Notes under the pieces: model-generated
The model's database searches: none
The model's input: the letters and a program-made list of their open reading frames with translations, nothing else
What the model was told of the DNA's origin: nothing
Origin: a virus
Virus record (IMG/VR): IMGVR_UViG_3300042880_000852
Length of the DNA stretch: 64,000 nt
Reading direction: 5' to 3' (one strand)
Program-made: the position numbers and the translations under genes
Shown here: one piece after another, positions 3,249-63,490 of the stretch
Layout of the letters: each line of letters starts with the position of its first letter
Numbering within the stretch: position 1 is the stretch's first letter

Positions 3249-3345
3249 TAGTCTCAAGTATTATAACTATATTTGTATATGAGTAAGAAGAAACATAAAG
3301 GCAAGAAGAAAGTATTCATTTGGGCCGAATAATATATAAAAGAAT

Positions 3346-3580: not shown

Positions 3581-3585
3581 CCAAT

Positions 3586-3673: not shown

Positions 3674-3706
3674 GTCTATAAATTTCCTCTTATGTATATT
3701 TGTCTT

Positions 3707-4969: not shown

Positions 4970-4997
4970 ATATTTATCTATATAAAAGAAACTTAAT

Positions 4998-5324: not shown

Positions 5325-5325
5325 C

Positions 5326-5760
5326 ATGAGAAAAAGAGATAAACTAAAAGCCATTAATGAGGCCAACCAAAGATTGGAGGAAAAGTGGTATCATACTTTG
5401 GCTACAACCGCTGCTTTACTTGCCTCTAGTCAGGGAGAATTAAAAGCACAAAATCAGCAAGATTATAAAAGTCATGAAATTGAACAAGTAACTGAAACTA
5501 AAGCTCAAAAGGAAATTAAAGCAATGATGGTCATTGGTCAGGATAATACAATTCCTTCTGTATATGTTGTTGGTAAATCACCAGATATTGCAACGGCAAA
5601 AAAAATAGCCTTAATGAATGCCAAACAAGAACTTATTAAGAAATATAAAGAAAACAAAGATATCTTTAAAAATCTTGGTATGTCAGATATGGGTATTAAA
5701 GCCGAGGTTATAAATAAAACCGAAGATGGAATTGAATATCATATCTTATTTGGCAAGTAA
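5326..5760 (+). CDS. hypothetical protein
   Basis: ATG 5326 in frame within track ORF 5278..5760; followed by a hairpin and T-run at about 5775-5812. Confidence 0.45.
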   Translation: MRKRDKLKAINEANQRLEEKWYHTLATTAALLASSQGELKAQNQQDYKSHEIEQVTETKAQKEIKAMMVIGQDNTIPSVYVVGKSPDIATAKKIALMNAKQELIKKYKENKDIFKNLGMSDMGIKAEVINKTEDGIEYHILFGK

Positions 5761-5918
5761 AAAATTTTTATAATTAATTAATCCCATGGGCATTCTCTGT
5801 GGGATTTTTTGTTTTATCTAATATGTGGAAATGGTTTTTGATGTCCGGAATCCGTCTTTTATCCCCCTACCCCCTTTTTTTATTTGGTCATTTAATTTAT
5901 TCTTCTTATATTTGTCTT

Positions 5919-6155
5919 ATGAAAACATTTGTTAAAATTTTATTGTTCGTTTCTTTTATTATGTCATTTATTTTTGTGGGTGGTGTGGTTGTGGATGGTC
6001 TGATGGCTTTGTTTCCCGTTTCTGCTAGTGAATGGTTTCCCGTTATCAGATTTATCTTGTGGATATTTACCTTTACCTTTAATTTAATTTTAACTTTTAT
6101 TTTATATTTTATATTGGTTTATATTATTTCTGTGGTAATGAGTTTGTTGATGTAA
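5919..6155 (+). CDS. small multi-pass membrane protein
   Basis: TATATTTG at 5907-5914, then ATG 5919; about three hydrophobic helices. Confidence 0.45.
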   Translation: MKTFVKILLFVSFIMSFIFVGGVVVDGLMALFPVSASEWFPVIRFILWIFTFTFNLILTFILYFILVYIISVVMSLLM

Positions 6156-6183
6156 AATAAAATTATTATATTTGTATTAATAA

Positions 6184-6432
6184 ATGGAGGTAGGCAGAAA
6201 ATATAAATTTAAAGATTCGTTAAACTTTGAATCTATTAGAGGTTATGAATTTATCTTTTTGGGCTTTACCGGCCGACACAATGATACTTGTGTGGCCAAT
6301 CTTATTATTGGTGGATTACCTAGTCCTGTTTGTAAACATTTTAATACTATTTCTTGGGATTTATTGGTTGAACCCGATTATGTACCACCCATACAAGGTG
6401 AATCAAGATTAATTTTTAGATTTATTCGTTAA
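6184..6432 (+). CDS. hypothetical protein
   Basis: TATATTTG at 6167-6174 upstream; 82 aa. Confidence 0.4.
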   Translation: MEVGRKYKFKDSLNFESIRGYEFIFLGFTGRHNDTCVANLIIGGLPSPVCKHFNTISWDLLVEPDYVPPIQGESRLIFRFIR

Positions 6433-6644
6433 TGGAAATAGTTAAGGTTATAATTAGAAAGGCAACATTACCAACTTATTGGTATGCCGATAAAATAGGA
6501 CAAGTCTTTGAATGTTATCAACGTGGTTCAAATCAATACCAAGTTGTGGAACATAAAGGTTCGGTTTGTTTTATTGTTGCTGACGATTGTATTCCTACTG
6601 ATTGTATTGGTCGTAAACCAATTAAAAGATTAAAATTAATATAA
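6432..6644 (+). CDS. hypothetical protein
   Basis: tightly packed 70-aa ORF whose start overlaps the previous stop. Confidence 0.35.
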   Translation: MEIVKVIIRKATLPTYWYADKIGQVFECYQRGSNQYQVVEHKGSVCFIVADDCIPTDCIGRKPIKRLKLI

Positions 6645-6829
6645 TGGAAAGACAAGAAGGATATTATTGGGTTAAATATAAAACAGGACATCAAATTGCT
6701 TATTGGGGTGTATGGATATCAAGTAAATTTGCTTGGTTTTGTATAGGAAGTGAAGAACAATATGAAGATTCGGATTTTGAACACATTAATGAAATAAGAA
6801 TTAAACAACCTGGGGAGTTACCTGATTAA
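6644..6829 (+). CDS. hypothetical protein
   Basis: 61-aa ORF in an operon-like array. Confidence 0.3.
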   Translation: MERQEGYYWVKYKTGHQIAYWGVWISSKFAWFCIGSEEQYEDSDFEHINEIRIKQPGELPD

Positions 6830-6832
6830 ACT

Positions 6833-7072
6833 ATGATTGAAGTAGGTCGATATTCTTTTTACGGTGTTACGCATATTAACGTCATGGATATTAAATATGA
6901 AGATGGTGATGTCCACTATTTTGTTCAACCCGATGTAAACCCTGAAGGTTGGTGGGTTAATTCTAATAATATGAAACGTATCTGTACTGATTTTAATTTA
7001 ACGTATGTCGGTCCTTATGTCCCCATCCAACCAAAACCTTATCTAAAGGAATTTCGTTTTCCTGTCGACTAA
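6833..7072 (+). CDS. hypothetical protein
   Basis: 79-aa ORF. Confidence 0.35.
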   Translation: MIEVGRYSFYGVTHINVMDIKYEDGDVHYFVQPDVNPEGWWVNSNNMKRICTDFNLTYVGPYVPIQPKPYLKEFRFPVD

Positions 7073-7082
7073 TTTTATTTTC

Positions 7083-9101
7083 TTGTTGGATATTTATTAT
7101 TTAGTGAGAGAACAATACAATATAGAAGACTTGGATTTTTTCTATAACGCTAGAACATTATTTTATGAAATTGGTTATGATGATAAACCTGTAAAAATTC
7201 ATGATGCTGTTAGTGATGATAATGGTTATTTAATACATGTTGGTATTCGTGATGGTGAATATAATATTTGTTATTATATTTTCGTTGGTGAGGATAGTAC
7301 TGAAGTTGAGGAATGTATTGCAGGTCAAAAGTTATTGCTGAATGCTTTAAATAACGGGAATATTGAACCAATTATGTCAAGTCTTGATGTAGAAGATGTT
7401 TTTAATTCATTAAATGAATCGACCGACAATTACCAACCAAAATTATATCTAAGATTTGAACCACCGATTCATAACGATACTCTTGGCATTAGACAATTGG
7501 ATAAAATTTTAATTTTGATTGAAAATGAATACCCAACAGTTAGTTGGTTTCAAGGTCAAGAACCTTCCCAATACAATCCTTTTATCCAAGAAGGTGAAGA
7601 TATCCCCGAACAAGTTAAATCTATCACCATTGGTTATTGGCCTGATAAACCAAATCTTTTAACTTATGGTCAGTGGGATGATAATGAAGAAGGTTATACA
7701 AATACAATTGACGGTTGGTTGTGGCTTGAAGAACGTGATGTTGATTATGATAAAACTTCCGATTTATTTAATTCATTGAATGAATCCGATGAATCAAGAA
7801 TTCCTAGTGCCGGTGATTATCTTATTTTTGTTGGCAGTGAATATGGTAAATGGTTCCACCCACTTTTTACAGTTGGTAAAGTTTATAAAGTGTTTAACAC
7901 CTCAGAAGGCATTATAGAAGTTCAAAATGATAGGGGTGGTCTATCAAATTTTAGTGTTGATTTACTTGACAATCTTAATTGGGAAACTTGGTTTCGATTA
8001 GCCAAATTTGATTATGACAAAACAACAGAAATCTTCAATCAATTAAACGAATCCACGTACCAACCAAAATTAAATTTAAGATTTGAGGATGGTATTTCTG
8101 ATGCTAATGAACTTGATAAGGTATTAAAAGTTTTAAGTCTTGTTTATCCTGGATTAAAATGGCTAGGAGGCGACCCAATTACGTCACACAATGTTATTCG
8201 TAATGTTGAAGATGATGAAAGAGAAGATTTTATATACGACCCAATTTATTATTTAACAATTGGTTATTTTCCTCACGCTCCAGATAAACTTACTTATACA
8301 AATGGACCTGATGATGATATTGGTTATGCGGATGAGGAACAACATGGTTATAATTGGGTTGACGGTTGGGAATGGGTACAAAAAAATGAGGTTGACTATG
8401 ATGAAACATCAGATATCTTTAATCAACTAAATGAATCGTATGATTTTCTTAAAACAACAAATTTAATTGGTTATAGTTTTAAAACTGTAGCTACTACTGA
8501 CTCTAGGTATTGGATTATTCGTCATGTTTTTAATGATAAAGGTGGTTACGTAACTGTTACTATGGAATACTCACCACTTTTTATTACAGACGTAGGAATA
8601 GAAGGTTTTCCAACAACAAAAACAATAAAAAAAGATAAGGTTATTGATTTTATTAGTTCTGGTAAATGGGAAATTGTTAGTGTACCTAATCAGATTGATT
8701 CTTTTGATGTTTTTGATAAACTAAATGAATCTACTCGAAAAGAAGATGGATTTACTTTAATTTTTGACCCACCAATTGAGGACCCAAAAACAATGGAAAT
8801 GGTTTTGATGAAATTACAAATTATTCATCCTGATTGGACTTGGGTTAATGATAAAAGATTGATTGATTACAATATTTTTGATTCGGGTGAAATAGGGTTT
8901 TATAAAGGACAATATGATACTGTAGTTGGTGCCTTAACCGTTAACCATCCTGAATGGGAAAACTCAAAAGGGGTTAGTTGGAGTTCTACCGATTATGACG
9001 AACCTTATATCAGAAATATGCCAAAATATAATGGTTGGGAGTATATAGAAGAATTAGGTGACATACCAACTACTGAAGACATTTTTAATCAATTAGGTTA
9101 A
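7083..9101 (+). CDS. tandem-module repeat protein (FN-x-LNES-linked modules)
   Basis: at least 5 modules, each introduced by D(I/L/V)FN(S/Q)LNES and often preceded by DYDKT; two alternating module types; C-terminus EDIFNQLG; the track start is TTG, so the true start is uncertain. Confidence 0.5.
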   Translation: MLDIYYLVREQYNIEDLDFFYNARTLFYEIGYDDKPVKIHDAVSDDNGYLIHVGIRDGEYNICYYIFVGEDSTEVEECIAGQKLLLNALNNGNIEPIMSSLDVEDVFNSLNESTDNYQPKLYLRFEPPIHNDTLGIRQLDKILILIENEYPTVSWFQGQEPSQYNPFIQEGEDIPEQVKSITIGYWPDKPNLLTYGQWDDNEEGYTNTIDGWLWLEERDVDYDKTSDLFNSLNESDESRIPSAGDYLIFVGSEYGKWFHPLFTVGKVYKVFNTSEGIIEVQNDRGGLSNFSVDLLDNLNWETWFRLAKFDYDKTTEIFNQLNESTYQPKLNLRFEDGISDANELDKVLKVLSLVYPGLKWLGGDPITSHNVIRNVEDDEREDFIYDPIYYLTIGYFPHAPDKLTYTNGPDDDIGYADEEQHGYNWVDGWEWVQKNEVDYDETSDIFNQLNESYDFLKTTNLIGYSFKTVATTDSRYWIIRHVFNDKGGYVTVTMEYSPLFITDVGIEGFPTTKTIKKDKVIDFISSGKWEIVSVPNQIDSFDVFDKLNESTRKEDGFTLIFDPPIEDPKTMEMVLMKLQIIHPDWTWVNDKRLIDYNIFDSGEIGFYKGQYDTVVGALTVNHPEWENSKGVSWSSTDYDEPYIRNMPKYNGWEYIEELGDIPTTEDIFNQLG

Positions 9102-9154
9102 AAAACTTTTCAATTTAAAGTTAATTTATTATCTTTGTTTAAATAATTAAATCT

Positions 9155-9403
9155 ATGAAATTCGGAACATTTTTATCTTTATTAGGTGGTACCACTAATC
9201 TTATCCTCACTATTGTTAATTTACTTGAAGGACAAAATCAAATAGCTTCAGTATGGGGTACAGCATCTATTTGGGCCTTTTCTACTTTTTTTACTGAATT
9301 AAACCTTAGTAAAAAAGAAAAACAAATTCAAAACATTAAAGACGCTATTGTTTCTTCTGAAAACGAAGTTGAGGCGATTAACAAAATTAACGACATACTT
9401 TAA
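9155..9403 (+). CDS. small membrane protein
   Basis: two hydrophobic helices in the N-terminal half. Confidence 0.4.
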   Translation: MKFGTFLSLLGGTTNLILTIVNLLEGQNQIASVWGTASIWAFSTFFTELNLSKKEKQIQNIKDAIVSSENEVEAINKINDIL

Positions 9404-9405
9404 AT

Positions 9406-9627
9406 ATGATTCGTACTGTCACTGTAAACTACAAAGGTCTTGAACTAGAATGTAAGGGTTATCATACACCTTATAAAAATAATGGGCGGGATAATCCACC
9501 TGATAATGAATGTTTTGAAATTGATACCGTTATTTGGAACGGTGTGGATATTTTAGAAGTACTTGATTCTTTAAATGTTGATTGGTGTGAGTTAGAATCG
9601 GTATGTCTCGAGTTTTTAAACGACTAA
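9406..9627 (+). CDS. hypothetical protein
   Basis: 73-aa ORF. Confidence 0.4.
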   Translation: MIRTVTVNYKGLELECKGYHTPYKNNGRDNPPDNECFEIDTVIWNGVDILEVLDSLNVDWCELESVCLEFLND

Positions 9628-9645
9628 TAGAGATATTTATTATCG

Positions 9646-10683
9646 ATGAGTAATATAAATTCTTTCTACGATAAAAAAATTATTTGGTTGGCTGACTACA
9701 ATATTTGTGGTGATAATTTTAACTATTTTAAAAATCAACTAATAACCATACTAAGATCTTTAAAAGAATTAGATAACCATGTTATAGAAACACTTAATAA
9801 TATTGGAATTGATTTAAAAAAATATAATGGTTGTTTATTGTATGTAAGATTCATCAACAGAAGTACTAATATTAAGTATTATTCTGTTGATGATTATGAA
9901 CAAGGGGATGATGCACATTTAGATGCTTTGGAGGCTTATCAAGATTTTGTTGATCGTGGATATTCACCTTTAATATGGTCCGATTTAATAGGTAATACTA
10001 CAGATACTTACGATATTTTTGATAAAATAAGTGAGTCAAATGAGTACTCAAATGTTTCACATTTAATTAATAAAAAAATTTGGTTTGACTATCCAACCGA
10101 AAGGGAAGACATTGAAAAAGTAAATCAATTTTTTATCGATAACGGTTTCCGTGGTTTAAAGAGTGATAATATAGACGAGTTTGAAGATTTTATTTATGAT
10201 AATGATGCAGCTTATTTTAAATTAACACAACATACATCACCTTTACATAGTGTTGAAGAAAGAAGACCTTATATTGATTATTTTTCTTTGGATTGGACAA
10301 ACCCTGAAAGATTAAAAAATGACCCAAGCTTTATTTATTATCAAGATATTTTAAATATGACTGATACCACTTTAGACATTCTTTCCAATTTGAATGAGTC
10401 GGTAGAAGAAATGCAACCAAAAATCGGTGACTACCTTTATTGTCATAAAGAAGTTGTTATGGATGATGGTAGCAAAGAAACAACAGTAGGTAAATTCTAC
10501 CAAATTAAAAATGTAATGCGTGATAGGTTGGAGATATTAAATGACCATAGAGGTGACCACGTATTTGGTACTAACCCTAAAACATATTGGTATTATGGTA
10601 TTTGGTTCCATTTAATACCAAAAGAACATAAAAAAGATTTTGATTCTTTTAATCCTGAAGACATCTTCAATCAGTTAGATTAA
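9646..10683 (+). CDS. repeat protein related to 7083..9101 (LNES-linked modules; C-terminal EDIFNQLD)
   Basis: internal ILSNLNES and IFDKISES linkers; C-terminal motif identical to that of ORF 7083. Confidence 0.5.
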   Translation: MSNINSFYDKKIIWLADYNICGDNFNYFKNQLITILRSLKELDNHVIETLNNIGIDLKKYNGCLLYVRFINRSTNIKYYSVDDYEQGDDAHLDALEAYQDFVDRGYSPLIWSDLIGNTTDTYDIFDKISESNEYSNVSHLINKKIWFDYPTEREDIEKVNQFFIDNGFRGLKSDNIDEFEDFIYDNDAAYFKLTQHTSPLHSVEERRPYIDYFSLDWTNPERLKNDPSFIYYQDILNMTDTTLDILSNLNESVEEMQPKIGDYLYCHKEVVMDDGSKETTVGKFYQIKNVMRDRLEILNDHRGDHVFGTNPKTYWYYGIWFHLIPKEHKKDFDSFNPEDIFNQLD

Positions 10684-11091: not shown

Positions 11092-11108
11092 CATATTTAT
11101 TTGATAGA

Positions 11109-12497
11109 ATGAAAAATATTTTTAAATACGTCATATTAGAACAACTCTTAACTGAGAATAGAATACAACAGGCAAAGGATAAATATCCTTGTTTACCACC
11201 AAAATTGATAGATTATCTATCTAATGGTGATCCTTCAGGTAATAACAAATATCTTGATTGGATGTGTAAACAAGTTTGGGATTCTGATGGAAATAATACT
11301 TTTGGTACTTTTGATGAAAACCAAGGTATATATACTTGGTTGGAGGATAATGGTGACTACAATATAAATAACCCAACAAGTTCACCTGATTGTCAAAAAG
11401 TTTGGTCTGAAAATTATAGAAGAGGTGATTTTAATGTCATACCTGTTGAAGGTTGGCTTAAAGACGTAGCTGATTATATTATAGAAGAAGTTGTTTACTT
11501 CAACCGTTTTTCAGGTTCTTTAGAAAAAAAAGATATAAATAGTTATAGTTATGACACTTTAGCAAAGGCTTTAGCAATTAAAAAACTTCAGTCAAAAGAA
11601 AAAGAATTAGCTAAAGATGTTACTAAAATCTATGAAGATAGTAGTTGGTTGATTGTTTCACCAAAATCACATCAAGCTTCTTGTACTTATGGTGCAAATA
11701 CAAAATGGTGTGTTACTACAAAAAATAACCCTGAATACTTTAAACGTTATACAAACGAACCACAATACTTAATTTTTGTTATCAATAAAGGAAGTAATCA
11801 AAAATGGGCTATTAATACCGCTAGAAAACAAGGTCAGGAAAGTGAAGAAGAAGTAACTGTACCTTGGCATAAAGAAGTTAAAAATTTAGGAAGACGTTAC
11901 GTCAATCCTGAAAATGTGGGGGAAAAATTTGGTACTATAGCAGCACAAAAAACTGAGACAGGTAGAAGATATGCTCAGGCTGGAGAATATCAAACAACAT
12001 ATTGGAACCCTGAAGATTATGAAATTGGGTGGGGTGCGTTTATTAAAGAATCTAGTTTACCTAAAAACTTACAAGAATTATTAAAATTTGTTGAAAAACG
12101 AGTTAAAGTTAACTTCCAAAAAAAAGAAAAAAATCAAAAAGCCTACGAAACAAACCCAAACCCTATTCGTCTTAAAAAAGGTGATAAAGTTAAACTTTTA
12201 GCGAGTGGATATGGTTTATATAAAGGTGATGAAGGTTATGTAATTTCTACTTATATCGGAGCACCTGGTAGAGAAAGAGAGGTATATACAGGTAATGCCG
12301 GTGTTTATGTTATACATGTTAATGATAGAAAATTAGATTACGAGGCTAATAGAGGTGTTAATTTAAAAAAAACTGATAAATTATTAACTAAACTAAAATT
12401 AAGTGACCCTGAAAAAGATAATTTTAGAAATTATGAAAGTTATGTAAACGTTACAGGTATACCAGTTAACGGTTTATTCTTACAAAAAATAAAATAA
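11109..12497 (+). CDS. paralog-family protein A (NKYLDWM ... YGA-x-TKWC core)
   Basis: shares an N-terminal helical region and a conserved core (WLIVSPKSHQASCTYGANTKWCVTT...LIFVINK) with ORFs 20407, 43000 and 62206(-). Confidence 0.55.
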   Translation: MKNIFKYVILEQLLTENRIQQAKDKYPCLPPKLIDYLSNGDPSGNNKYLDWMCKQVWDSDGNNTFGTFDENQGIYTWLEDNGDYNINNPTSSPDCQKVWSENYRRGDFNVIPVEGWLKDVADYIIEEVVYFNRFSGSLEKKDINSYSYDTLAKALAIKKLQSKEKELAKDVTKIYEDSSWLIVSPKSHQASCTYGANTKWCVTTKNNPEYFKRYTNEPQYLIFVINKGSNQKWAINTARKQGQESEEEVTVPWHKEVKNLGRRYVNPENVGEKFGTIAAQKTETGRRYAQAGEYQTTYWNPEDYEIGWGAFIKESSLPKNLQELLKFVEKRVKVNFQKKEKNQKAYETNPNPIRLKKGDKVKLLASGYGLYKGDEGYVISTYIGAPGREREVYTGNAGVYVIHVNDRKLDYEANRGVNLKKTDKLLTKLKLSDPEKDNFRNYESYVNVTGIPVNGLFLQKIK

Positions 12498-14604: not shown

Positions 14605-15903
14605 TTAAACATTTCTACCGTTTTCGTAAATATATTTTAAAACAGGAAATCTAAGACTAATTCCACCTTCTTGATTTTTAGTTTCTTCAAAATATTGAAT
14701 ATTTACAGTTTTACCCACAATTTTGGATGAATCTTTATAGAATTCTTGACGTTGTTCGATACTAAAACCACTACCAACACCAACCTCAAATCCTTTATGC
14801 TCAATCACAATTTGTGATGTCATAGTTTCAGTAACTTCTTTACCGTTAATAATAATACGAATAGGTCCATAAGTAATTCCTTTAACTACATACTCAGCAT
14901 CATGGAATTTTTTAGCCTTTAAAAGGTCCTTACTACGTTTACCTTTGTAAGTAACATTTTTACGTACCATCACACCTTCCCATTTACCTTCTTCAGACTT
15001 ATCCATCCATTCTTGAAAGTGTTTTACGTCACGTATTTTTTCTTGTGGTAAAATTTCAAGAGTACAATTATTTTCATTACAAATAATAGTTTCACCTAAA
15101 ACTTTAAGACGTTCAGAAAGTTTACGAACACTTCTTTGGTTAGAAAATTCTTCTAAACTTAAACAATCAAATACTTTATACTTAACATTTTGAATGGTGT
15201 GATTTTTTCTACGAATTTCTTTCATAATAGATTGGAAATCTTCGTCACCATTTTCATCGACCATACAAATCTCACCGTCAAAAACAATATTACGAAGTCC
15301 AAGATTAGTAATCACTTCCTCAACTTTGTCTAGAGTATCAAATATTTTACCCTGACGAGAGTAAGAAGTTACTTGACCATTTTCCCCAACAACTGTAATA
15401 CAACGAACACCATCAAGTTTACGAGATACATACCACTCTTCAGTTTCAAAGTTAACCATTTCAGGTTCAAATTTTTCAGCGAGAGCAACATCAAATGTTG
15501 GTACAGTTCCAGGAACGGCTTTATTGATAAGACTTTCACCGACACGACATTTCAAATCTTTGTCAATTATATTAAAAATTAATTCTTTATGTTCAGAATT
15601 TAATTCTACAAATGAATTTACAAGTCCAATAGCATTATGACCTGTAACTTCGCGAGTACGTAACTCATCCAACAATTCAAAAATATTATATTCTTTTTCG
15701 GTTAAAAAAAGAAGTGTGTGTAACTTTTTGCAATTATCGGAAGTTATGTGAAACTGATAAAAAGGATTTGTGACATACATCACAAGTTTCTTCAAATCAG
15801 AATCGTGAAGATATTCTTTTAAAAGTTCTACTTTTTTGTTTGAGGAAGAGTCTGATTGTAACTTAGTAACTAATTCTTGAAGACGTGATAGAATATTTTT
15901 CAT
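14605..15903 (-). CDS. ATP-dependent DNA ligase
   Basis: nucleotidyltransferase motifs: I KLDGVR, III FDGEI, IV EGVMVRK, V DLLKAKKF; size comparable to T7/T4-type ligases. Confidence 0.8.
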   Translation of the reverse strand: MKNILSRLQELVTKLQSDSSSNKKVELLKEYLHDSDLKKLVMYVTNPFYQFHITSDNCKKLHTLLFLTEKEYNIFELLDELRTREVTGHNAIGLVNSFVELNSEHKELIFNIIDKDLKCRVGESLINKAVPGTVPTFDVALAEKFEPEMVNFETEEWYVSRKLDGVRCITVVGENGQVTSYSRQGKIFDTLDKVEEVITNLGLRNIVFDGEICMVDENGDEDFQSIMKEIRRKNHTIQNVKYKVFDCLSLEEFSNQRSVRKLSERLKVLGETIICNENNCTLEILPQEKIRDVKHFQEWMDKSEEGKWEGVMVRKNVTYKGKRSKDLLKAKKFHDAEYVVKGITYGPIRIIINGKEVTETMTSQIVIEHKGFEVGVGSGFSIEQRQEFYKDSSKIVGKTVNIQYFEETKNQEGGISLRFPVLKYIYENGRNV

Positions 15904-15949
15904 TCTACAAAGATACGATTATTAATTTAATATACAAATTTAATAAAAT

Positions 15950-16248: not shown

Positions 16249-17160
16249 TTAGACTAATAAAAGTCCGAATTTTTTACGATATTCTAACACAGAAAGTTCT
16301 TTTGCCTTAGATTCAAACATTAAATCTAAATCATAACCGTAAGTGTCAACTTCGTTTTGAATATAGTCATGGTGTGCACGAAAATTTTGTTCATCACGAG
16401 GTTCAGAAATATGAACAACTGGTGTTATATCAGAAGGCCAAGTTGCCACGGCAAGTTTTAAGGCATCTTCGATACTCATACCATCATTGTGACAGTTATG
16501 GTGATGATAGTCGAATACAATAGGTATTTTGGTGTTTTCATGGATATATAACAAGTCTTTAACAGTAAACATATTTGGCTTGTCATCATTCTCAACAGTC
16601 AAACGTTTTTTGGTGTTTTCACCAAGTAATTGGAAGTTATCAACCCAACGTTTCATCGCATCTTGTTTATTACCATAGGCACCACCAACGTGAATGTTAA
16701 TTTTAGAAAAAGGTGAAACAGGCAAACCTATCATATCCATAATTTCTGAATGTTTGTCTAATTCTGAAATTGTTTTTTTAACAACATTTTCACTAGGTGA
16801 GGCTAAAACATTAAATGGACCTGGGTGAAAACTTAAACGATGGTTATATTGTCTGACAAGGTTACCTAAACCATTTAATAAGTTTTTAATTTTACCAATG
16901 TCAGGTAAGTCATCAAAATTATATTCACTCGACCAAGGAAACATATCAGAACTCATGCGGTAAAGATTGATACCGTTTTTTTCATTCCATTTAATAACTT
17001 CAATAAGGTCCCGAACATTTTGTAAAGAAAGTTCTGACACATAATTAAGCCCTTTGGAGTCAAAAGTTTTTCGAATCATACCACGATTAGTCGTAATATT
17101 TTTCTCACCTAGGGTCATGTTGATACACGCGTAACCAATTTTCATAATACAAACATACAC
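16249..17160 (-). CDS. uvdE: UV DNA damage endonuclease (UvdE family)
   Basis: N-terminal IGYACIN..L......T.R motif, HPGPF and INIHVGG...VENDD TIM-barrel signatures of UVDE. Confidence 0.7.
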   Translation of the reverse strand: MYVCIMKIGYACINMTLGEKNITTNRGMIRKTFDSKGLNYVSELSLQNVRDLIEVIKWNEKNGINLYRMSSDMFPWSSEYNFDDLPDIGKIKNLLNGLGNLVRQYNHRLSFHPGPFNVLASPSENVVKKTISELDKHSEIMDMIGLPVSPFSKINIHVGGAYGNKQDAMKRWVDNFQLLGENTKKRLTVENDDKPNMFTVKDLLYIHENTKIPIVFDYHHHNCHNDGMSIEDALKLAVATWPSDITPVVHISEPRDEQNFRAHHDYIQNEVDTYGYDLDLMFESKAKELSVLEYRKKFGLLLV

Positions 17161-18097: not shown

Positions 18098-18343
18098 ATG
18101 ATAGATGAATTATACGATTCCGTATTAAGTATTACAAATCAAACAGGTTATATAGATAAAATAGCAGAATTTGAAGATAAAAAATCTTATTTACGCTGGT
18201 CTTCGAACAATCTATTCAAACACAATAACCATAAAATTTACAATCCAAATTACCCAATAAAAACTTTTTCACACGATTACAATTTTAGACTACCTTTTTC
18301 TTTTATAATAAAAGAAGATGGTACCATTGACAATGTTGATTGA
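18098..18343 (+). CDS. hypothetical protein
   Basis: 81-aa ORF. Confidence 0.35.
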   Translation: MIDELYDSVLSITNQTGYIDKIAEFEDKKSYLRWSSNNLFKHNNHKIYNPNYPIKTFSHDYNFRLPFSFIIKEDGTIDNVD

Positions 18344-18355
18344 TATTTATATCTG

Positions 18356-20361: not shown

Positions 20362-20406
20362 TTAGTTAAATTTTGATATTTATAAATATAATCAAAAATT
20401 TCTTTA

Positions 20407-22083
20407 ATGAACATAATTTTAGAAAACATAAGAAAAGTTTTATTAGAAAACAGGGTTGATGATGTTAAGAAAAAATATCCTGAAGTTGACCCTGCTATTA
20501 TTGACTATTTTGTAAAAGAAGACCCGTCAGGTAACAACAAATATCTTGATTGGTTGGTTAAGGCTATGACCCATGGACCAACAATCCAATCTGTTGAAGA
20601 TATTTTGGATGAGGCTATGCAATTTAACACACCTCAAGAGTTTTTAATGATGTTGGTTAAAAAATTTCACGAATTATTACCTTATATGGTATATGTTGAA
20701 GATGGTAAGAAAGTTGGTACTACTGATTTGTATCAATATAAATTTACTGACAGTGAAATGATTAATTTTTTGGGTTTTGATTTATCTCAAGCAAAAGAAA
20801 GAAAAGACGAAAAGAATAAACAAAAAGACGCGAAGAAAAATTCTGATAAAATCTATGAAGATAAAAATTGGTTGGTAGTTAGACCAAAAAATTGGGAGTC
20901 TTCTTGTGTATATGGAGCCGGTACTAAGTGGTGTACAACATCCAAAGAAAATAGTTCACACTTTAAACGTGAAACTGACCGTAACTTTTTAATTTACGTA
21001 ATTAACAAAAATAAAACTTCTAAAGATACTGAATACAAGGTTGCTTGGCAAATTCCTTATACGAAAAAAGTAAATAAATACGTTACCTCAACACCAGGTA
21101 ACCCATCAGTTTGGACTTTAAATACCGATAAAATTAAATTATGGAATGCTGAGGATACTAATATAGCAAGTAGAGGTTCTTCTGGTTATGATTATTTAGA
21201 TACGGTTCCGGCCTCTGTTAAGGGGAATATTTTAAAATACATGCAAAGACAAATGGATGAAATGTATGCCAACATGGCTTACGTTGAAGATCCTTACACC
21301 CAAGCTTTGGTTGAGCATTTGGCTTTAAGTGAAGAAGAAGTTGAAGAGGTTGAACAAAGAGATTACGGTTATTACGGTATGCGTGTTTATACCGTAGACG
21401 GTAGTGATGATTATGCTGTAGCAACAACAGATGAGGTTGAGAGGGCGAAACACGAATGGGCGGAAAATTATATTAACGATTTAGGTATTTGGGAAGCTAT
21501 TGGTAATAATCCCGAAAAATACATTTATATTAACGACCCAAGGACTATAGCAAATGATATGGCTGAAAATTATATAGGGGATTTAAATGTAACTGACGAT
21601 ATATTACACGAAGGAAAAAGATTGGACAAAGAAACCAAAGCTATGGTTGAAGAATGGGAAGTTAATCAATCAATCATGGAAACTAATCAAGAAGATATTG
21701 ATGATATGATGGAAAGATATGGTGAATTAGATGAAGACGAAGAACAAGAATTGTCAGAATTAGAAATTGAAAATGAATCAATAGAAAAAACAAACGATAA
21801 ACTTTTACAATCTATTAAAGATAGAATTCGTGACGATTATTATGAAACTTATGTTACTCGTATGACAGACGACCCATTAGATTGGTTGGAAGAGTTTGGT
21901 TACTGGAGTAGTAAAACTGGTTTAGATAAATTTGCCATTAAAAACGGTTTGGTTGGTATTGACGAAACCGAATTAATTAATGATATGGCAGATGATTTAG
22001 ATTACGAATATTTTAGTAGGACTGGTAATTACGAGTATGTAAACATAGAAGGTGATAGATACTACATCTTCCCAACAGATTAA
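20407..22083 (+). CDS. paralog-family protein B (NKYLDWL ... YGAGTKWCTT core) with acidic C-terminal region
   Basis: core WLVVRPKNWESSCVYGAGTKWCTTSKENSSHFKRE...LIYVINK aligns with ORFs 11109, 43000 and 62206. Confidence 0.55.
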   Translation: MNIILENIRKVLLENRVDDVKKKYPEVDPAIIDYFVKEDPSGNNKYLDWLVKAMTHGPTIQSVEDILDEAMQFNTPQEFLMMLVKKFHELLPYMVYVEDGKKVGTTDLYQYKFTDSEMINFLGFDLSQAKERKDEKNKQKDAKKNSDKIYEDKNWLVVRPKNWESSCVYGAGTKWCTTSKENSSHFKRETDRNFLIYVINKNKTSKDTEYKVAWQIPYTKKVNKYVTSTPGNPSVWTLNTDKIKLWNAEDTNIASRGSSGYDYLDTVPASVKGNILKYMQRQMDEMYANMAYVEDPYTQALVEHLALSEEEVEEVEQRDYGYYGMRVYTVDGSDDYAVATTDEVERAKHEWAENYINDLGIWEAIGNNPEKYIYINDPRTIANDMAENYIGDLNVTDDILHEGKRLDKETKAMVEEWEVNQSIMETNQEDIDDMMERYGELDEDEEQELSELEIENESIEKTNDKLLQSIKDRIRDDYYETYVTRMTDDPLDWLEEFGYWSSKTGLDKFAIKNGLVGIDETELINDMADDLDYEYFSRTGNYEYVNIEGDRYYIFPTD

Positions 22084-42960: not shown

Positions 42961-42999
42961 TGCTTTAGTTTCTAATTTAAATTCAGATATTTATTTGAT

Positions 43000-45771
43000 A
43001 TGAGAAATATATTTTTGTTAGAAGAATTACTTTTAGAAAATAGAATAGATGATGTTAAAAAGAAATATCCTAACGTACCTTCTGAAGTTATAGAAGAGTT
43101 TGCTAGTAATGACCCTTCTGGTACCAACAAATATTTGGATTGGATGGTTTATACCAAGTCTATAGGTTTTCCCGGTATTGGTACGTCAAATGTTATTAAA
43201 AATATAAATTTATTTCATAAAAACATTAACAAATTAACCAAAGAATTTTTTGATGAATTTATTAAAGAAAATAAATTTGAATGGTTACTTACTGATAACT
43301 CACCTGTAGCCAAAACTTTTCAAAATATTTATAAAAGTCCTAAAGATATTAATACTTACAAAGATTACGGTATTGCTTCAGTAATTTTTAAATCTGTTGA
43401 TAACGTGTTATCTAAATCTGAGGTTAAAAAATTAGAAGCAAATGTTTTATACAACTCTGATGATTTATTAATCATGATTCCTAAATCACATAGAGCATCT
43501 TGTTACTACGGAGCTGGAACTAAATGGTGTACAACAAATAAAGAAAGTGATAATTATTTTAAAAATTATACTAATAAAGGTACTTTAATTTATGTTATAA
43601 ATAAAAAAGAACCTGAAACAAACCCTTGGTATAAAACTGCCTTTTTAATTGAAAAAGAAAATGGTAAAGTTCAAGCCTATGATGCTCCAGACCATCCGAC
43701 CGATATAAATATTGCGGCAGAAAAATTAGGTGATAATTGGGGAATTATCAGAGACGTTATTGTAGAATATCTTTATAAAAATGAATTAAAAGGTATTGAA
43801 AACCTTTATTTTGGACAAGATTTGATTGCTTGGTTAGAATCCAAAGATATTGATCCACTTAAAACTTTAAATTCAAATCAATTAATTGAAAAATTGGGTC
43901 ACAATACTTTAATATCTTATTTAAATAAAAGGGGTATTAATATATACGAATATCTACCGTATAGACAAATATTAGAAATTTATTCGATTCAAAAAATATG
44001 GGAAGGTTATAAAAATATCGGTATTAACCCGTTAACCAAAATGTTTATCAAACGTAATGACGCAGACGATTTAATTCAGGCAATAAAAAATAAAACCATT
44101 TCTTTAGATGAGTTTTTACATTTAAGTTCTGACCCAAAATTTTTAGAATCTGTTTCAGGTGGTGAAGTACAAGGAACTAAAAACATTTTTACAATAATGA
44201 ATTTGTTTTTTGGAAGTAGTAGACCGGACGATTGGATGAGTTCTAGAATAGCACCAGCCTTAATAGAATTATTTAACAATGATGTTGATTTGATATTTGG
44301 TTACGCTAAAAACATAGGAGTAAACTTATTCCAAGCTTTAGATGTTAGGGGTATGAACCATCTTTTAAATAAAAAATTTGATTTTGAAAATGCTTTAAAA
44401 TATACCTTACAAAATAAAGATTATTTAAAAAGTACTTTAGTTAATTACGGTTTCCCTAAAAAAGAAGTTATTGAGTATCTTTCTAAACAACCCAACGGAA
44501 TAGAGTTATTTAAAGAATTAGTTGACAAGGACTTAATAAAAGATTTAAGGATAGAAGAAGTTTTACCGTTTTTTAAAGATGACAGAAAAGAAGTTTTTTT
44601 ATTTTGGTTAAAATCTAAATTTAGAGGCAGGTTTGATGTTGAGGATGTTTTGGATGCTGCAGGTCCCGAAATAGGTAAAGTTTTTTCAAACATAGAATCT
44701 TTTGAAGCTTTTATAAGTGAAAATTATTTACACAAAGATTACGATATTTTAAAATCTGTTTCCATAAAATCTTTATGGAAAAGTTTTTTCAACAAAGATT
44801 TTTATCAATTATATAAAACGTTTTTAGAAAAAGGTAGAGCTAATGAACTAGATACTTTGATGTTGATAAAGGCTTATGAAGATGCTCCTGTTGAAGAGGG
44901 TACTGGGTTAAAAAATATTGTTTTAGAAAGAGCTCATTATGAATTAAAAGGCGATAACAGATGTAAATTAGAAACTAGAGACGGTGTTGATTATATCATT
45001 TTTGAAGATTTGGACCGTGTTTTAGGGTTATTTGATGATAATGCTGATTATTACAGTGTCCTATCAAGTAGTTTTAACCCTGATACTTATGAAAATTTTT
45101 CTGATATAAGTTATTTTTTAGACAATGAAATCACAATTAAAGTAATTAAAGATTACCTAATGGATAATTTTAGAGAAAAAAAGGTGGGTTTAAATTTAGA
45201 CTGGTTGGAAGATTTTGATGATTTAGGTGATAGAATTAAAATAGACGACATCAACGATAAATTTTATTTTAAATTATATGATGAATTAATTCAGGGGATG
45301 TCTGGTTATAATATATTAGTATTAGTTGAAAACTCACCTGAATTAAAAAAACTTAAAGAAGTAATTGAATCGTCTTACAGTATTGTTTATAAAGATTTAC
45401 TTAGGAAAGAACTTAAAGATGAGTTGACATCGAAAATGGAAGGTATTTTTGGTGATGATTTTATGCGAACTAAAAAAATTCAAAATAAATATAAAGAACC
45501 GAAAACTGTTTATGAATTTAGGTATGATTATTTAATGGATGATATTATCACTTTTGCTGATGATTTTGTTTTTTATGAAGAAGAACTACCCAATTCGGTT
45601 TATGATTTAATTGTATCGTTAATGGAGAATAATAAAGGTAGGTTTGACGGTACTGTTAGTTTAGATTTAGAATATGTTATGGAAATTTGGTCCCCGTATG
45701 AAAATCAGGAATTGTTTTTAGAAACTTTTACCAATGAACTATATCAAACCCTAAGTAAATCCGAAGATTAG
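43000..45771 (+). CDS. paralog-family protein C (NKYLDWMV ... YGAGTKWCTT core) with a roughly 700-aa C-terminal extension
   Basis: core LLIMIPKSHRASCYYGAGTKWCTTNKESDNYFKNYTNKGTLIYVINK; lies immediately upstream of the large terminase. Confidence 0.55.
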   Translation: MRNIFLLEELLLENRIDDVKKKYPNVPSEVIEEFASNDPSGTNKYLDWMVYTKSIGFPGIGTSNVIKNINLFHKNINKLTKEFFDEFIKENKFEWLLTDNSPVAKTFQNIYKSPKDINTYKDYGIASVIFKSVDNVLSKSEVKKLEANVLYNSDDLLIMIPKSHRASCYYGAGTKWCTTNKESDNYFKNYTNKGTLIYVINKKEPETNPWYKTAFLIEKENGKVQAYDAPDHPTDINIAAEKLGDNWGIIRDVIVEYLYKNELKGIENLYFGQDLIAWLESKDIDPLKTLNSNQLIEKLGHNTLISYLNKRGINIYEYLPYRQILEIYSIQKIWEGYKNIGINPLTKMFIKRNDADDLIQAIKNKTISLDEFLHLSSDPKFLESVSGGEVQGTKNIFTIMNLFFGSSRPDDWMSSRIAPALIELFNNDVDLIFGYAKNIGVNLFQALDVRGMNHLLNKKFDFENALKYTLQNKDYLKSTLVNYGFPKKEVIEYLSKQPNGIELFKELVDKDLIKDLRIEEVLPFFKDDRKEVFLFWLKSKFRGRFDVEDVLDAAGPEIGKVFSNIESFEAFISENYLHKDYDILKSVSIKSLWKSFFNKDFYQLYKTFLEKGRANELDTLMLIKAYEDAPVEEGTGLKNIVLERAHYELKGDNRCKLETRDGVDYIIFEDLDRVLGLFDDNADYYSVLSSSFNPDTYENFSDISYFLDNEITIKVIKDYLMDNFREKKVGLNLDWLEDFDDLGDRIKIDDINDKFYFKLYDELIQGMSGYNILVLVENSPELKKLKEVIESSYSIVYKDLLRKELKDELTSKMEGIFGDDFMRTKKIQNKYKEPKTVYEFRYDYLMDDIITFADDFVFYEEELPNSVYDLIVSLMENNKGRFDGTVSLDLEYVMEIWSPYENQELFLETFTNELYQTLSKSED

Positions 45772-62205: not shown

Positions 62206-62964
62206 TTAACCTTTATAAGTATCGTCTTTGATGCCTCTTTCTTTAGCAATTTCCTTATTGGTCTTACCTTTAAGAGTTGTATTAACCACTTTCATAACAT
62301 CTTGTGGTATAATCTCCATTAATTCCATCATACCTACAGCTGTAACTGGAATATCTTTAGAATCCCAAATTGTGGTTGCTGAATGACCTGTTTTGGTTTT
62401 GTCATAGTGAAAAGCCACCTTAGAAAAGATGTTATCACGAGTTTGTTCTTCTTTGATTGATTTGTCAATCACAAACACAAGAACACCATTCTCAGTGTAT
62501 TGGTTAAAATACTTTTTAAAGTCATTTTGGTCGGAAGAAACACACCACTTAGTTGACTTACCGTAAACATTAGAACTACGAGAAGTAAGTGGTTGGAGTA
62601 CTACAAATCTGTCGTCTTCGTGTACAGTAATAGTTTCAAATTTCTTAACTTGACTCTTAGTCACTTTTTCACGTGCCAATTTAATTGTGTCAACAATTTC
62701 TTGGTTAGAACCATAAGAGTAGATATCTTTATTTTCTAAAAGATTTTTATCAGAAAGTTCTTCAAATTCTTTTACAATATCAAACATTTCTTTAAATGTA
62801 TTTGACTTTAATTCTTCTTTAAGCCAATCCACCCAAGATTCTGCTTGTTTAACCATAAACGGTAAGTATTTATTAGTACTTGAAGGATCATTTTTAGCCA
62901 AAATTTCAACTAAATCAATAACAAATTTTGGGTTCTGTTCTTTAAGGTCTTTCTTTTTTGCCAT
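62206..62964 (-). CDS. paralog-family protein D (TNKYLPFMV ... YGKSTKWCVSS core), shortest member
   Basis: core FVVLQPLTSRSSNVYGKSTKWCVSSDQNDFKKY...LVFVIDK aligns with ORFs 11109, 20407 and 43000. Confidence 0.5.
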   Translation of the reverse strand: MAKKKDLKEQNPKFVIDLVEILAKNDPSSTNKYLPFMVKQAESWVDWLKEELKSNTFKEMFDIVKEFEELSDKNLLENKDIYSYGSNQEIVDTIKLAREKVTKSQVKKFETITVHEDDRFVVLQPLTSRSSNVYGKSTKWCVSSDQNDFKKYFNQYTENGVLVFVIDKSIKEEQTRDNIFSKVAFHYDKTKTGHSATTIWDSKDIPVTAVGMMELMEIIPQDVMKVVNTTLKGKTNKEIAKERGIKDDTYKG

Positions 62965-63067
62965 ATCTTATTTGTATTACAGTACAAAGATATGATTTTT
63001 ATTTTAAGTCGTCAACAGATATTGATATTTTATTTAATAATGAGATATTTATATAGAAAATGTAATT

Positions 63068-63490
63068 ATGAAAGTAGTTAGACTAAACGAAAACGATATA
63101 GAAAATTTGGTTAAAAAAATTATCAAAGAAGATGAGGGTCAAATGAAGCCTTCGGAACCAAAAGAAAAATCACTTGTATTATTAAAAACTAATAATGGTG
63201 AATTATCTACGGTTGATGAAATTGTTAGAGCAATTCAACACGCTAAAATAGCTTTTGAAGATTTGTGTAACTCTAAGTTAACTGGTAAAGACGGTTATTC
63301 TAGAGAAATTGATGGTATTGTAAATGACTTTACAAAACTAGAAGATAAAGTTCGTAAATCAAAAGAAACTATCGGCAAATTTGTTCAACAAAAAGGTAAA
63401 CAAGACCATATGGCTTATATGAAAAAAAGAAAAATGGATTATATGGCAAACCAAGAAAAAGCACGTAAGAGAGGTAGTTACTACGCATAA
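63068..63490 (+). CDS. hypothetical protein with N-terminal leader (VVRLNENDIENLVKKIIKEDE)
   Basis: leader matches ORFs 4998 and 55865. Confidence 0.45.
   Translation: MKVVRLNENDIENLVKKIIKEDEGQMKPSEPKEKSLVLLKTNNGELSTVDEIVRAIQHAKIAFEDLCNSKLTGKDGYSREIDGIVNDFTKLEDKVRKSKETIGKFVQQKGKQDHMAYMKKRKMDYMANQEKARKRGSYYA

Follow-up and report, generated by a model that had tools for sequence, protein, structure and literature searches.

Four genes with a common N-terminal module

The window, the whole 64,000-nucleotide stretch of viral DNA that was analysed (IMG/VR record IMGVR_UViG_3300042880_000852), contains four ORFs that are referred to here as A (11109..12497, plus strand), B (20407..22083, plus strand), C (43000..45771, plus strand) and D (62206..62964, minus strand). 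A sequence-only reading had described them as a paralogous family with products of 462, 558, 923 and 252 aa, respectively, and the ORFs and their lengths were present exactly as given. The proposed four-copy paralogy was highly significant, with pairwise BLASTP alignments yielding E values of 1e-12 to 1e-30. A and B matched over residues 1 to ~200–230 with an E value of 1.5e-30 and 35% identity, and the same N-terminal ~200–230 residues gave E values of 1e-24 to 1e-27 for A and C, 2e-28 to 3e-30 for B and C, and 2e-12, 1.5e-16 and 4e-18 for D with A, B and C, respectively. As had been proposed, the C-terminal extensions differ; similarity stopped after about 200–250 residues, and past the module BLASTP detected only chance-level matches among the four ORFs (E > 0.2). 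Thirty-two columns were invariant among A–D, including D-P-S..N-K-Y-L, P, S, Y-G, T-K-W-C and V-I-x-K. The earlier description of a ~60-aa core was correct in that TKWC is invariant in all four proteins, but the shared region is longer (~200–250 aa). We conclude that the four ORFs are paralogues, each composed of a constant, two-part N-terminal module of about 200–250 aa and its own C-terminal extension.

The module spans residues ~1–262 of A (nt 11109–11894, TKWC at nt 11700–11711), ~1–259 of B (nt 20407–21183, TKWC at nt 20923–20934) and ~1–247 of C (nt 43000–43740, TKWC at nt 43519–43530). D is essentially the module with a short helical tail (TKWC at nt 62542–62553). A six-frame HMM search of the window recovered exactly A, B, C and D (E 1e-53 to 1e-106). 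No fifth copy was found in the window, the next best six-frame match having an E value of ~0.02–0.1; profiles built from the four sequences and from 184 modules gave the same outcome. The extension of A is basic (net +8) with a weak SH3-like stretch, that of B, with a net charge of −50 and a pI of 4.1, is very acidic and includes a stretch resembling a coiled coil, and that of C is acidic (net −42), 700 aa long and without a family match. In D, the most conserved of the four members, Asn stands where the SC..WC pair has its first Cys, and the initial LLxENR helix is missing; a weak HTH-like (GerE) match lies at its C-terminus (E 0.03).

C lies directly 5′ of the large terminase gene (TerL; 45820–47649), with the portal gene also downstream, and D has minus-strand early genes of the DNA-metabolism type around it. 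The promoter-like motif ATATTTAT occurs at 34 sites compared to 16 ± 3.7 expected, and 21 of the 34 lie ≤45 nt 5′ of the start of a gene on the same strand, where 3% would be expected; A, B, C, TerL and portal are among these genes. It is found on the plus strand at 11093..11100 (8 nt 5′ of the A start), 20376..20383 (23 nt 5′ of B) and 42987..42994 (5 nt 5′ of C), as well as before TerL (45791) and portal (47691). An inverted copy (20382–20389, minus strand) overlaps the motif of B and serves the divergent gene at 19567–20361. The motif may mark "middle plus late" or merely "phage-specific" transcription, since it is also present 5′ of genes with no obvious structural role, one being the DHH-family gene at 25074. 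Upstream of D is TATCTTTGTA (62983..62992, minus strand), which contains TAnnTTTG, a Bacteroidota-type −7 box, with TTGACG further upstream. The D promoter is predicted to be of the host type, like those of the ligase and UvdE genes, where TAnnTTTG is found likewise.

Predicted structure of the module and its possible relationship to PcfJ

Structure models were confident (pLDDT 88 and 86) and predict a helical bundle, with a DPSxxNKY loop and a KDIxxY loop, set against a small alpha/beta core; the loop of this core has the sequence (A/S)-S-C-x-Y-G-x-x-T-(K/R)-W-C. Over 184 modules W-C was conserved in 99%, G in 98% and D in 95%, and the conserved residues are located in predicted loops. The signature DPSxxNKY ... 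KDIxxY ... (A/S)SCxYGxxT(K/R)WC ... IxK should be useful for annotation. Searches of the PDB by sequence profile, using the module and full-length orthologue alignments of A, B and C, returned nothing significant, and a PDB fold search gave no match to any solved anti-defence protein or to any enzyme or regulator fold. Readings of the conserved residues as PD-(D/E)xK, P-loop, PTP-like C-x5-R or papain-like motifs were rejected, as the topology or the invariant residues appear not to fit.

Most copies had been thought to carry leader-like N-termini. This interpretation did not hold, as the stretch concerned, LLxE(G/N)R..KKYP, is the first helix of the domain; it aligns to profile positions 2–25, was modelled as helix 1 of the bundle and recurs before internal modules of relatives (P0123 residue 424, P0254 residues 217 and 715, P0128 residue 483). 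The stretch is missing from D, the aligned N-terminal region of which was modelled as helices, and from the homologue gp205 of Pseudomonas phage PA5oct. A T4-type capsid-targeting propeptide ending in an (L/I)xE protease site is not supported, since the helix is part of the fold and recurs internally. A secretion signal peptide, for which we looked for a basic N-terminal region, a 10–15-residue hydrophobic core and a cleavage site, is not supported either; the N-termini read as amphipathic and charged (e.g. MNIILENIRKVLLENRVDDVKKKYP), and a continuous hydrophobic core is absent.

Pfam, NCBIfam and PADLOC searches with A–D gave only sub-threshold PcfJ matches and noise (SH3_2, GerE, Drf_FH3). 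No catalogued anti-defence or defence family (PADLOC, NCBIfam, Pfam, PDB sequence and fold) and no fibre, spike or depolymerase family matched A–D. The PcfJ HMM (PF14284) matched the same core region of A (16.0 bits, E 0.011) and D (13.2 bits, E 0.077), and the Pfam search gave no PF14284 match for B and C. All four ORFs were thus below the gathering threshold of 25 bits, compared to 148.9 bits for the prototype, PcfJ of Enterococcus faecalis plasmid pCF10 (WP_011109626.1). Four of 82 family representatives matched PF14284 at E ≤ 1e-3 (best 5.1e-5). Alignment of the 184-module profile with pCF10-type PcfJ by hhalign gave an E value of 0.0033 and a probability of 9.7% over 57 columns with the Cys aligned, the PcfJ profile being shallow (near-identical Enterococcus sequences only, mutually at least 71% identical). 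The module profile scored 5–10 bits against PcfJ in hmmsearch, and Foldseek searches of BFVD matched "PcfJ like protein" models with E values of 2.1e-3 (prob 0.87), 2e-2, 3.6e-2 and 4.5e-2; the PDB contains no PcfJ structure. PcfJ therefore appears to be the nearest named family, the link being weak but consistent across four methods, and the module may represent a phage-specific branch of a PcfJ-like superfamily. The earlier view that the core is not assignable stands in that no curated family accepts it, and is modified by this link.

Distribution and age of the family

At E ≤ 1e-3 the family comprised 8,089 representative clusters (clustered at 50% identity), and it is very large, widespread, mostly viral and uncharacterised. 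The phrog_17056 HMM matched all four proteins (A, E 7.5e-9; B, 2.3e-5; C, 2.6e-9; D, 9.2e-11), and A and D also matched phrog_28193 over the core. Hence the family is already catalogued as a phage protein cluster of "unknown function", although these matches span the core alone, without the whole module or the extensions. Among the best 150 family members, 111 had a single N-terminal module followed by variable sequence and ~26 had 2–5 modules. Domains co-occurring with the module were WG_beta_rep, LRV, HEAT, DUF4116 and Peptidase_M23; the M23 peptidase and a Lyase_8_N-like region are each present in some relatives, and BFVD matches include proteins annotated as LRR and ankyrin. The family is usually multi-copy per phage genome, with several copies in many viral contigs and in Salicola phage SCTP-2. 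Only eight loci were found in cellular genomes, seven of them on MAG contigs; the eighth, on a WOR-3 MAG chromosome, has ClpP-like, Dam and GroEL-like genes as neighbours and resembles a prophage. No match was obtained by tblastn of D against plasmids or of A and the B module against phages; cultured phages were reached by tblastn only from the D and PA5oct gp205 queries.

Each paralogue has its own full-length orthologue group, of conserved length down to about 30–37% identity (A, 448–471 aa; B, 538–570 aa; C, 921–961 aa; D, >100 clusters of 243–254 aa), which argues that the duplications are ancient. Because identity between paralogues (25–35%) is saturated for dN/dS, we instead compared orthologue identity, which was 45–75% in the module vs 25–45% in the extensions; conservation of the module is consistent with purifying selection. 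Local synteny of the paralogues was conserved where tested. The idea of a diversifying duplication, i.e. recent and fast-evolving, is not supported, given the fixed-length orthologue groups and a module that is more conserved than the extensions. A–D are instead old, stably retained, subfunctionalised paralogues. Core-gene-like conservation of each paralogue is unusual for arms-race effectors.

A gene encoding 140 aa (63068..63490, plus strand) is divergent from D. The pair is kept in diverged relatives, among them L013 and L034 (35% identity, E 3e-17 for the latter), suggesting that the 63068..63490 product is a possible partner of D.

Interpretation and comparison with known systems

The reading that we tentatively prefer, while giving it somewhat less than an even chance, is that the module is a helical head joined to targeting extensions, and that A–D serve as establishment or host-takeover factors, e.g. 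in counter-defence, at or just after genome entry. The module would be the working "head", with a catalytic or ligand-binding pocket that uses Cys, because the near-invariant residues, including the 99%-conserved Trp-Cys, are polar and lie in loops. Different partners would be reached through the variable extensions, of which that of A is basic, that of B strongly acidic and that of C both long and acidic; elsewhere in the family, LRR, ankyrin, HEAT/LRV, WG or DUF4116 repeats or an M23 peptidase could play this role. Judging from motif sharing, A, B and C would be transcribed from the phage's own promoter-like motif, which is used by the terminase, portal and head genes. They would probably be made late and, by analogy with the PA5oct homologue, may be packaged in the virion and enter the cell together with the DNA; D would be made early, from its host-type promoter. 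A–D would then correspond, in phages, to the PcfJ genes that conjugative elements carry in their leading or anti-defence regions. The earlier suggestion of a host-interaction or injected-effector family is compatible with the circumstantial evidence from virion MS of gp205, motif sharing with head genes and the plasmid context of PcfJ. D, with neither the first Cys nor a substantial targeting extension, counts against an effector reading.

The virion evidence comes from PA5oct gp205 (QCG76086.1), which is annotated "structural protein, ESI-MS/MS" and adjoins TerL, as does its orthologue in all PA5oct-like jumbo phages. Its designation as a depolymerase is a guess resting on a 66.5%-confidence Phyre2 model (PMC6950013). 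Of the 93 proteins detected by MS in PA5oct, 7 are "virion-unrelated enzymes" (PMC7318152), so detection of gp205 is no proof of packaging. It is possible, if unlikely, that A–D are themselves structural or assembly components of the virion, with the module anchoring the varied C-terminal parts on the capsid interior, portal/neck or baseplate in the manner of tail-fibre N-terminal anchor domains or the paralogous inner-head proteins of jumbo phages. The MS detection and position of gp205 would fit such a role, as would the location of C directly upstream of TerL and portal, the presence at A, B and C of the motif found at head and packaging genes, the fixed-length conservation of each paralogue, which resembles that of a core structural gene, and the M23 peptidase or Lyase_8_N-like region of some relatives, which is typical of virion-borne enzymes. 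However, polar loop residues with an invariant Cys form a pattern more of a pocket than of a docking surface, and the extensions read as acidic/helical or as solenoid repeats rather than as beta-rich and fibre-like. The host-type, early-looking promoter of D, the occurrence of 2–5 modules in one polypeptide and the presence of PcfJ relatives on plasmids, which make no virions, also argue against a structural role.

The enzyme-like conservation pattern would suit intracellular enzymes or regulators that act during infection without being delivered, an explanation that we consider improbable. Their targets might be nucleic acids, nucleotides or proteins of phage or host, the extensions would specialise the paralogues, and the PA5oct MS signal would be carry-over, in keeping with the non-virion enzymes in that MS list. 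The early-type promoter of D and its position among minus-strand early genes, its weak GerE-like match and the core-gene-like conservation of the family point in this direction. Set against this are the absence of similarity to any known enzyme or regulator fold in the PDB searches, the morphogenesis-gene motif shared by A, B and C together with the location of C inside the packaging block, and the repeat-type protein-binding extensions and multi-module giants, which resemble conflict proteins more than metabolic enzymes. That the copies are selfish or mobile cassettes that spread within phage genomes without serving the phage, comparable to the homing endonucleases of T4-like phages, is very improbable, since despite the scattered multiple copies per genome in many phages and a GIY-YIG homing-type endonuclease gene in the window, the orthologue groups are stable and of fixed length with local synteny conserved where tested, Pfam, PHROG and NCBIfam searches found no nuclease-type domain in A–D, and module conservation is consistent with purifying selection.

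Returning to the preferred reading of A–D as entry-stage factors, a broader form of it, to which we give only a small chance, is that the module is an unrecognised fold with a Cys-centred pocket that serves as an entry-stage effector head in both phages and conjugative elements, with three to six copies per large phage. The head would belong to one of the largest groups of uncharacterised proteins on mobile elements, with more than 8,000 clusters at 50% identity. Its members would arrive with the incoming DNA or be produced straight afterwards, as virion cargo in large phages and as leading-region PcfJ in conjugative elements, and their variable extensions would point them at different host targets such as defence systems. 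An effector head common to jumbo-phage virion proteins and plasmid PcfJ would name and connect thousands of "hypothetical" proteins and, if true, would imply that phages and conjugative elements follow a shared strategy at entry. Whatever the function, annotation and the choice of experimental targets can draw on the module boundaries, the signature and the status of each paralogue as an old conserved lineage, and gp205 belongs to a cultivable system.

PA5oct gp205 carries both signature motifs, first DPTSNQKYLQW and then GKGTRWC, as in the proteins described here, and continues into an unrelated extension (HMM E 7e-18, tblastn E 6e-4, Foldseek E 2.4e-7); like C, it is encoded next to the large terminase gene. 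It differs in being single copy, in its ~25% identity to D and in its N-terminal start. In the hhalign alignment with PcfJ, the core elements correspond one by one: a beta-hairpin that closes with Pro is followed by a helix, by a loop that contains Gly and finishes with (K/R)-(W/H)-C, by a helix in which a Tyr is conserved and by a hydrophobic strand with K/R at its end. Both families are found on mobile elements and neither has a known function; our literature search found no paper assigning one to PcfJ. In pCF10 PcfJ the domain is C-terminal (residues 287–433 of 447), whereas the phage module is N-terminal, and the plasmid protein lacks the DPSxxNKY helical sub-domain and has ..RHC in place of SC..T(K/R)WC. 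Unlike pCF10 PcfJ, the phage module occurs in large phages, usually in several copies. The pCF10 pcfJ gene adjoins an AcrIIA9-family gene and a DpnD/PcfM gene, and a "PcfJ-like" family has been placed under "Other unknown leading families" (PMC11541004). In CPR target genes, a PcfJ-like motif has also been described 5′ of the DGR variable regions (PMC5758913). The T4 internal proteins and Alt, P1 DarA/DarB and the "polyvalent proteins" that phages and conjugative elements encode (PMC5512222), in the survey of which PcfJ is absent from the domains discussed, have no sequence or fold relationship to the module and are comparable only in how they work. These DNA-delivered proteins resemble it in being built of modules, with several paralogues or modules in each element, and in their fusion to peptidase or repeat domains, and they are likewise tied to the virion or to the first-entering part of the plasmid.

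Four paralogues and their shared module

The sequence-only reading had placed four paralogous ORFs in the window, and A (11109–12497, +, 462 aa), B (20407–22083, +, 558 aa), C (43000–45771, +, 923 aa) and D (62206–62964, −, 252 aa) have exactly the coordinates and lengths that it listed. Pairwise BLASTP over the first ~200–230 residues yielded E values of 1.5e-30 for A–B, about 1e-28 to 3e-30 for B–C, 1e-24 to 1e-27 for A–C and 2e-12 to 4e-18 for D against A, B or C; past this region, pairwise similarity was at chance level only. The alignment of A–D contained 32 invariant columns, including DPS..NKYL, P, S, YG, TKWC and VIxK. Six-frame HMM scans of the window with two profiles, one of the four paralogues and one of 184 diverse modules, had the same outcome: A, B, C and D were the only matches, and no fifth copy was found in the window (next best E about 0.02–0.1). 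From these data we conclude that the four ORFs are paralogous. The common region proposed earlier is real, and its extent is that of a two-part module of ~200–250 residues instead of a leader joined to a 60-residue core. We refer to bearers of this module as the TKWC family.

The N-termini described as leader-like belong to the fold and are not signal peptides. The stretch LLxE(G/N)R..KKYP occupies the first profile positions and recurs before internal modules, as in ...NLLTEGRKEDAKVKYP... near residue ~430 of P0123, another protein of the family. The aligned N-terminal region of D was modelled as helices, and the LLxE(G/N)R motif is absent from D and from gp205, the homologue in Pseudomonas jumbo phage PA5oct. 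A T4-type prohead-protease site at LLxE is conceivable, but nothing supports it. Another N-terminal peptide that recurs, VRL(N/T)E(N/K)D(I/L)ExhVKKIIKED, opens three window ORFs (63068–63490, 55865–56149 and 4998–5324, all +), and a similar L-x-E-x-x-h-x-x-h-V-x-E motif opens several giant multi-module family members found in other metagenomes (P0121, P0144, P0149, P0150 and P0153); this type of peptide may act in targeting or may be a short helix that these proteins share. Peptides of the type M-K-x-L-I-R-K-I-L-K-E (MKNLIRKILKEE, MKHLIRKILKES, MKDLILKILKES, MMRNNIRKILRE) open four otherwise unrelated ORFs at 53495–55027 (−), 63544–63930 (−), 61541–61858 (+) and 56519–56998 (−).

D was modelled by AlphaFold2 with a 55-sequence alignment (pLDDT 88, pTM 0.66). 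The model consists of a helical bundle (residues 4–110), an alpha/beta core and three short C-terminal helices. Within the core, strands 111–116 and 120–125 and helix 128–135 are followed by a loop of lower confidence containing TKWC (136–148), helix 149–158 and strands 160–167, 182–188 and 197–200; a core-only model contained the same elements (pLDDT 86, pTM 0.78). Conservation among 184 modules of the wider family was highest for W-C (99%), G (98%) and the D of KDIxxY (95%), followed by T, P, S, Y, the first C (84%) and the K of IxK. As the best conserved positions are nearly all in predicted loops or helix ends, we infer from the model that they would form a pocket rather than a hydrophobic core.

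Diversifying duplication had been suggested for the four copies. Each paralogue has its own full-length orthologue set, reaching down to about 30–37% identity, in which length is kept (A, 448–471; B, 538–570; C, 921–961; D, 243–254 aa). Identity within these sets is 45–75% for the module and 25–45% for the extension, so the duplications are old and the copies have been stably kept. The extensions have diversified faster than the module, and at these identities they are not hypervariable. Comparison of the A, B and C extensions with solved structures by sequence gave no match. Their net charges are +8 for A, −50 for B (pI 4.1) and −42 for C. The B extension (residues ~280–558 of 20407–22083, +) has 81 D+E against 31 K+R and a coiled-coil-like stretch near residues 400–500; from its composition, a DNA mimic is conceivable.

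Spread of the family and its probable relationship to PcfJ

At E ≤ 1e-3, exhaustive searching of 1.84 billion representatives with HMMER identified 8,089 clusters, of which 3,804 also passed E ≤ 1e-10. Among the best 150 clusters, 111 had one N-terminal module followed by unrelated sequence, ~26 had two to five modules per polypeptide (up to 1,844 aa), and some had internal modules. The extensions seldom match Pfam; the matches were WG repeats, LRV/HEAT, DUF4116, a Lyase_8_N-like region and a C-terminal M23 peptidase, and LRR- and ankyrin-annotated proteins were present among BFVD relatives. Among cultured phages, bearers were found only in jumbo phages, namely PA5oct-like Pseudomonas phages, Caulobacter phage CcrBL9 and Salicola phage SCTP-2, the last with the family at six places; IMG/VR contigs commonly have two to four copies per 10–20 kb. 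A narrow motif scan of 185,579 species genomes found eight loci only. Seven are on MAG contigs, several binned as Bacteroidota, and the eighth (L027; CP070664.1, a WOR-3 MAG chromosome, 61–10232) encodes an 808-aa member at the edge of a block with a ClpP-like protease, a Dam methylase and a GroEL-like chaperonin. Ordinary bacterial genes adjoin this block, which looks like a prophage.

Profile searches of the module against PDB sequences gave no match, nor did A–D match NCBIfam or PADLOC. In PHROGs, all four match phrog_17056, and phrog_28193 is matched by A and D as well (both 'unknown function'). The only Pfam matches were sub-threshold ones to the plasmid family PcfJ (PF14284; A, E 0.011; D, E 0.077), with the A and D cores mapping to one common part of the HMM. 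Of 82 family representatives, four matched PcfJ at E ≤ 1e-3, the lowest value being 5.1e-5, and Foldseek matched viral models annotated 'PcfJ like' (E 2e-3, probability 0.87; others weaker). Alignment by hhalign of the 184-module profile with PcfJ of Enterococcus faecalis plasmid pCF10, for which the profile was shallow, gave E 0.0033 with a probability of only 9.7%, over the pattern ED-D-hhhh-P ... G ... (K/R)(W/H)C ... Y ... G-hhhh-(K/R). The pCF10 protein is a genuine PcfJ (148.9 bits on Pfam PcfJ), without a counterpart of the module's N-terminal helical sub-domain. We conclude that the family probably branches off distantly within a PcfJ-like superfamily and lies outside Pfam PcfJ as defined. 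Because PHROG clusters and the fringe of Pfam PcfJ already show the family, it is not categorically new; we found no literature describing it as a defined two-part module, as multi-copy in large phages or as PcfJ-linked.

Gene content and promoter-like motifs

The window, which has a G+C content of 31%, derives from a tailed phage and codes for a T4-type portal, large terminase (TerL), T4-type major head protein (58720–60516), ClpC/ClpB-like ATPase, thymidylate synthase, ATP-dependent ligase, UvdE and a glutamine-synthetase-like protein. Identity between this portal and those of cultured phages does not exceed 40%; the nearest are from Microcystis phage Mel-JY01 and Flavobacterium phage immuto. 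An identical A protein was found in 76 blocks of a public assembly collection; those inspected included metagenome contigs from ENA and JGI. The double-AAA+ ATPase (27202–29781, −; Clp_N, AAA, UVR motif, AAA_2, ClpB_D2-small) is encoded within a few kb of TKWC-family genes in related viral contigs L008, L011 and L023. The glutamine-synthetase-like gene (51169–52320, +; Gln-synt_C E 8e-18, Gln-synt_N E 1e-6) lies directly 3' of the portal block and is also kept in L013, a compared viral locus. A GIY-YIG/NUMOD3 homing-type endonuclease gene (30485–31261, +) overlaps the start of the thymidylate synthase (ThyA) gene (31254–32498, +; 414 aa), the product of which is long; as its residues 7–327 span only profile positions 2–236 of a 266-position model, insertions are suggested. 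The repair-type early gene set (all −) comprises the ligase (14605–15903), UvdE (16249–17160; UV-endonuclease match E 1e-68, unusual in phages) and a weakly matching DUF932-like protein (22564–23664); DUF932 (PF06067) is also one annotation given to a top family of plasmid leading regions (PMC11541004). The block that precedes the terminase gene encodes an 844-aa protein (38185–40719, +) whose match to the DnaJ-type CXXCXGXG zinc finger fell short of the cut-off (E 4e-6) and which had no PHROG match.

The promoter-like octamer ATATTTAT occurred at 34 sites in the window compared to 16 ± 3.7 in shuffles, and 21 of the 34, almost all on the + strand, were at most 45 nt upstream of a same-strand gene start (3% expected). 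It lies 8, 23 and 5 nt upstream of A, B and C, respectively, also precedes TerL, the portal gene, the gene after it and an endonuclease-VII-like gene, and is 54 nt upstream of the first gene of the head-protein operon (57135). The consensus is (G)ATATTTAT(A/T), with examples at 45791–45798, 47691–47698, 49664–49671, 60599–60606, 9633–9640, 18343–18350 and 25049–25056; no −35 element was visible near such sites. Several are just 4–8 nt from ATG, which would imply leaderless or near-leaderless mRNAs.

The D upstream region contained no ATATTTAT motif; 20 nt upstream of D is a TATCTTTG box (TAnnTTTG), which we take to be the Bacteroidota sigma-A −7 box. Similar TAnnTTTG(TA) boxes precede most minus-strand genes, including those for the ligase, UvdE, the DUF932-like protein and the AAA ATPase as well as D (62983–62992, 15906–15915, 17148–17157, 23681–23690, 24769–24778, 53460–53469 and 2291–2300, all −), and TAnnTTTGTA occurred at 26 sites compared to 11.5 expected. 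The boxes, the G+C content, Chitinophagaceae/Bacteroidia MAG bins and the portal likeness to a Flavobacterium phage together suggest that the host belongs to the Bacteroidota and that early and late genes lie on separate strands. Our inference is that A, B and C fall into a phage-specific, probably late class and D into a host-promoter, probably early class; 'late' is not firm, as ATATTTAT is likewise found ahead of genes whose type is unknown or non-structural.

Candidate roles and comparison with known systems

Divergent from D is a 140-aa gene (63068–63490, +), the product of which is a possible partner of D. The pair is kept in relatives (L013, 6537–7819; L034, 9459–10741) that have a D orthologue of 55% identity and a different wider neighbourhood; the L034 partner is 35% identical (E 3e-17).

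The host-interaction or injected-effector role raised in the sequence-only reading is plausible on circumstantial grounds. PA5oct gp205 carries both signature motifs (DPTSNQKYLQW and GKGTRWC), and its annotation as a virion protein comes from ESI-MS/MS, with the caveat on its detection that the PA5oct list of 93 proteins holds seven 'virion-unrelated enzymes' (PMC7318152). Our leading but tentative explanation, for which the evidence is circumstantial, is that A–D are modular entry-stage or host-takeover factors with a PcfJ-like head and partner-selecting extensions. The constant head would provide a Cys-containing pocket and the paralogue-specific extensions would pick partners; A, B and C would be made together with the head and packaging genes and possibly packaged, and D would be made early. 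A purely structural or anchoring function in the virion is unlikely, and we consider it equally doubtful that A–D, without being delivered, work as intracellular enzymes or regulators of the phage. Selfish cassettes are highly improbable, and the remaining probability goes to something else.

The family is real, large and open to experiment through PA5oct gp205. In PA5oct-like phages the family gene, gp205 included, adjoins the large terminase gene, as C does here. The pCF10 PcfJ gene adjoins a DpnD/PcfM gene and one annotated as an AcrIIA9-family Cas9 inhibitor. A 'PcfJ-like' family (2209, 19 members) appears under 'Other unknown leading families' in a plasmid leading-region survey (PMC11541004, supplementary file 3). 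A PcfJ-like motif also lies upstream of the variable region in some CPR bacterial DGR target genes (PMC5758913), which have the same layout as the A–D family, a constant head and a variable binding tail.
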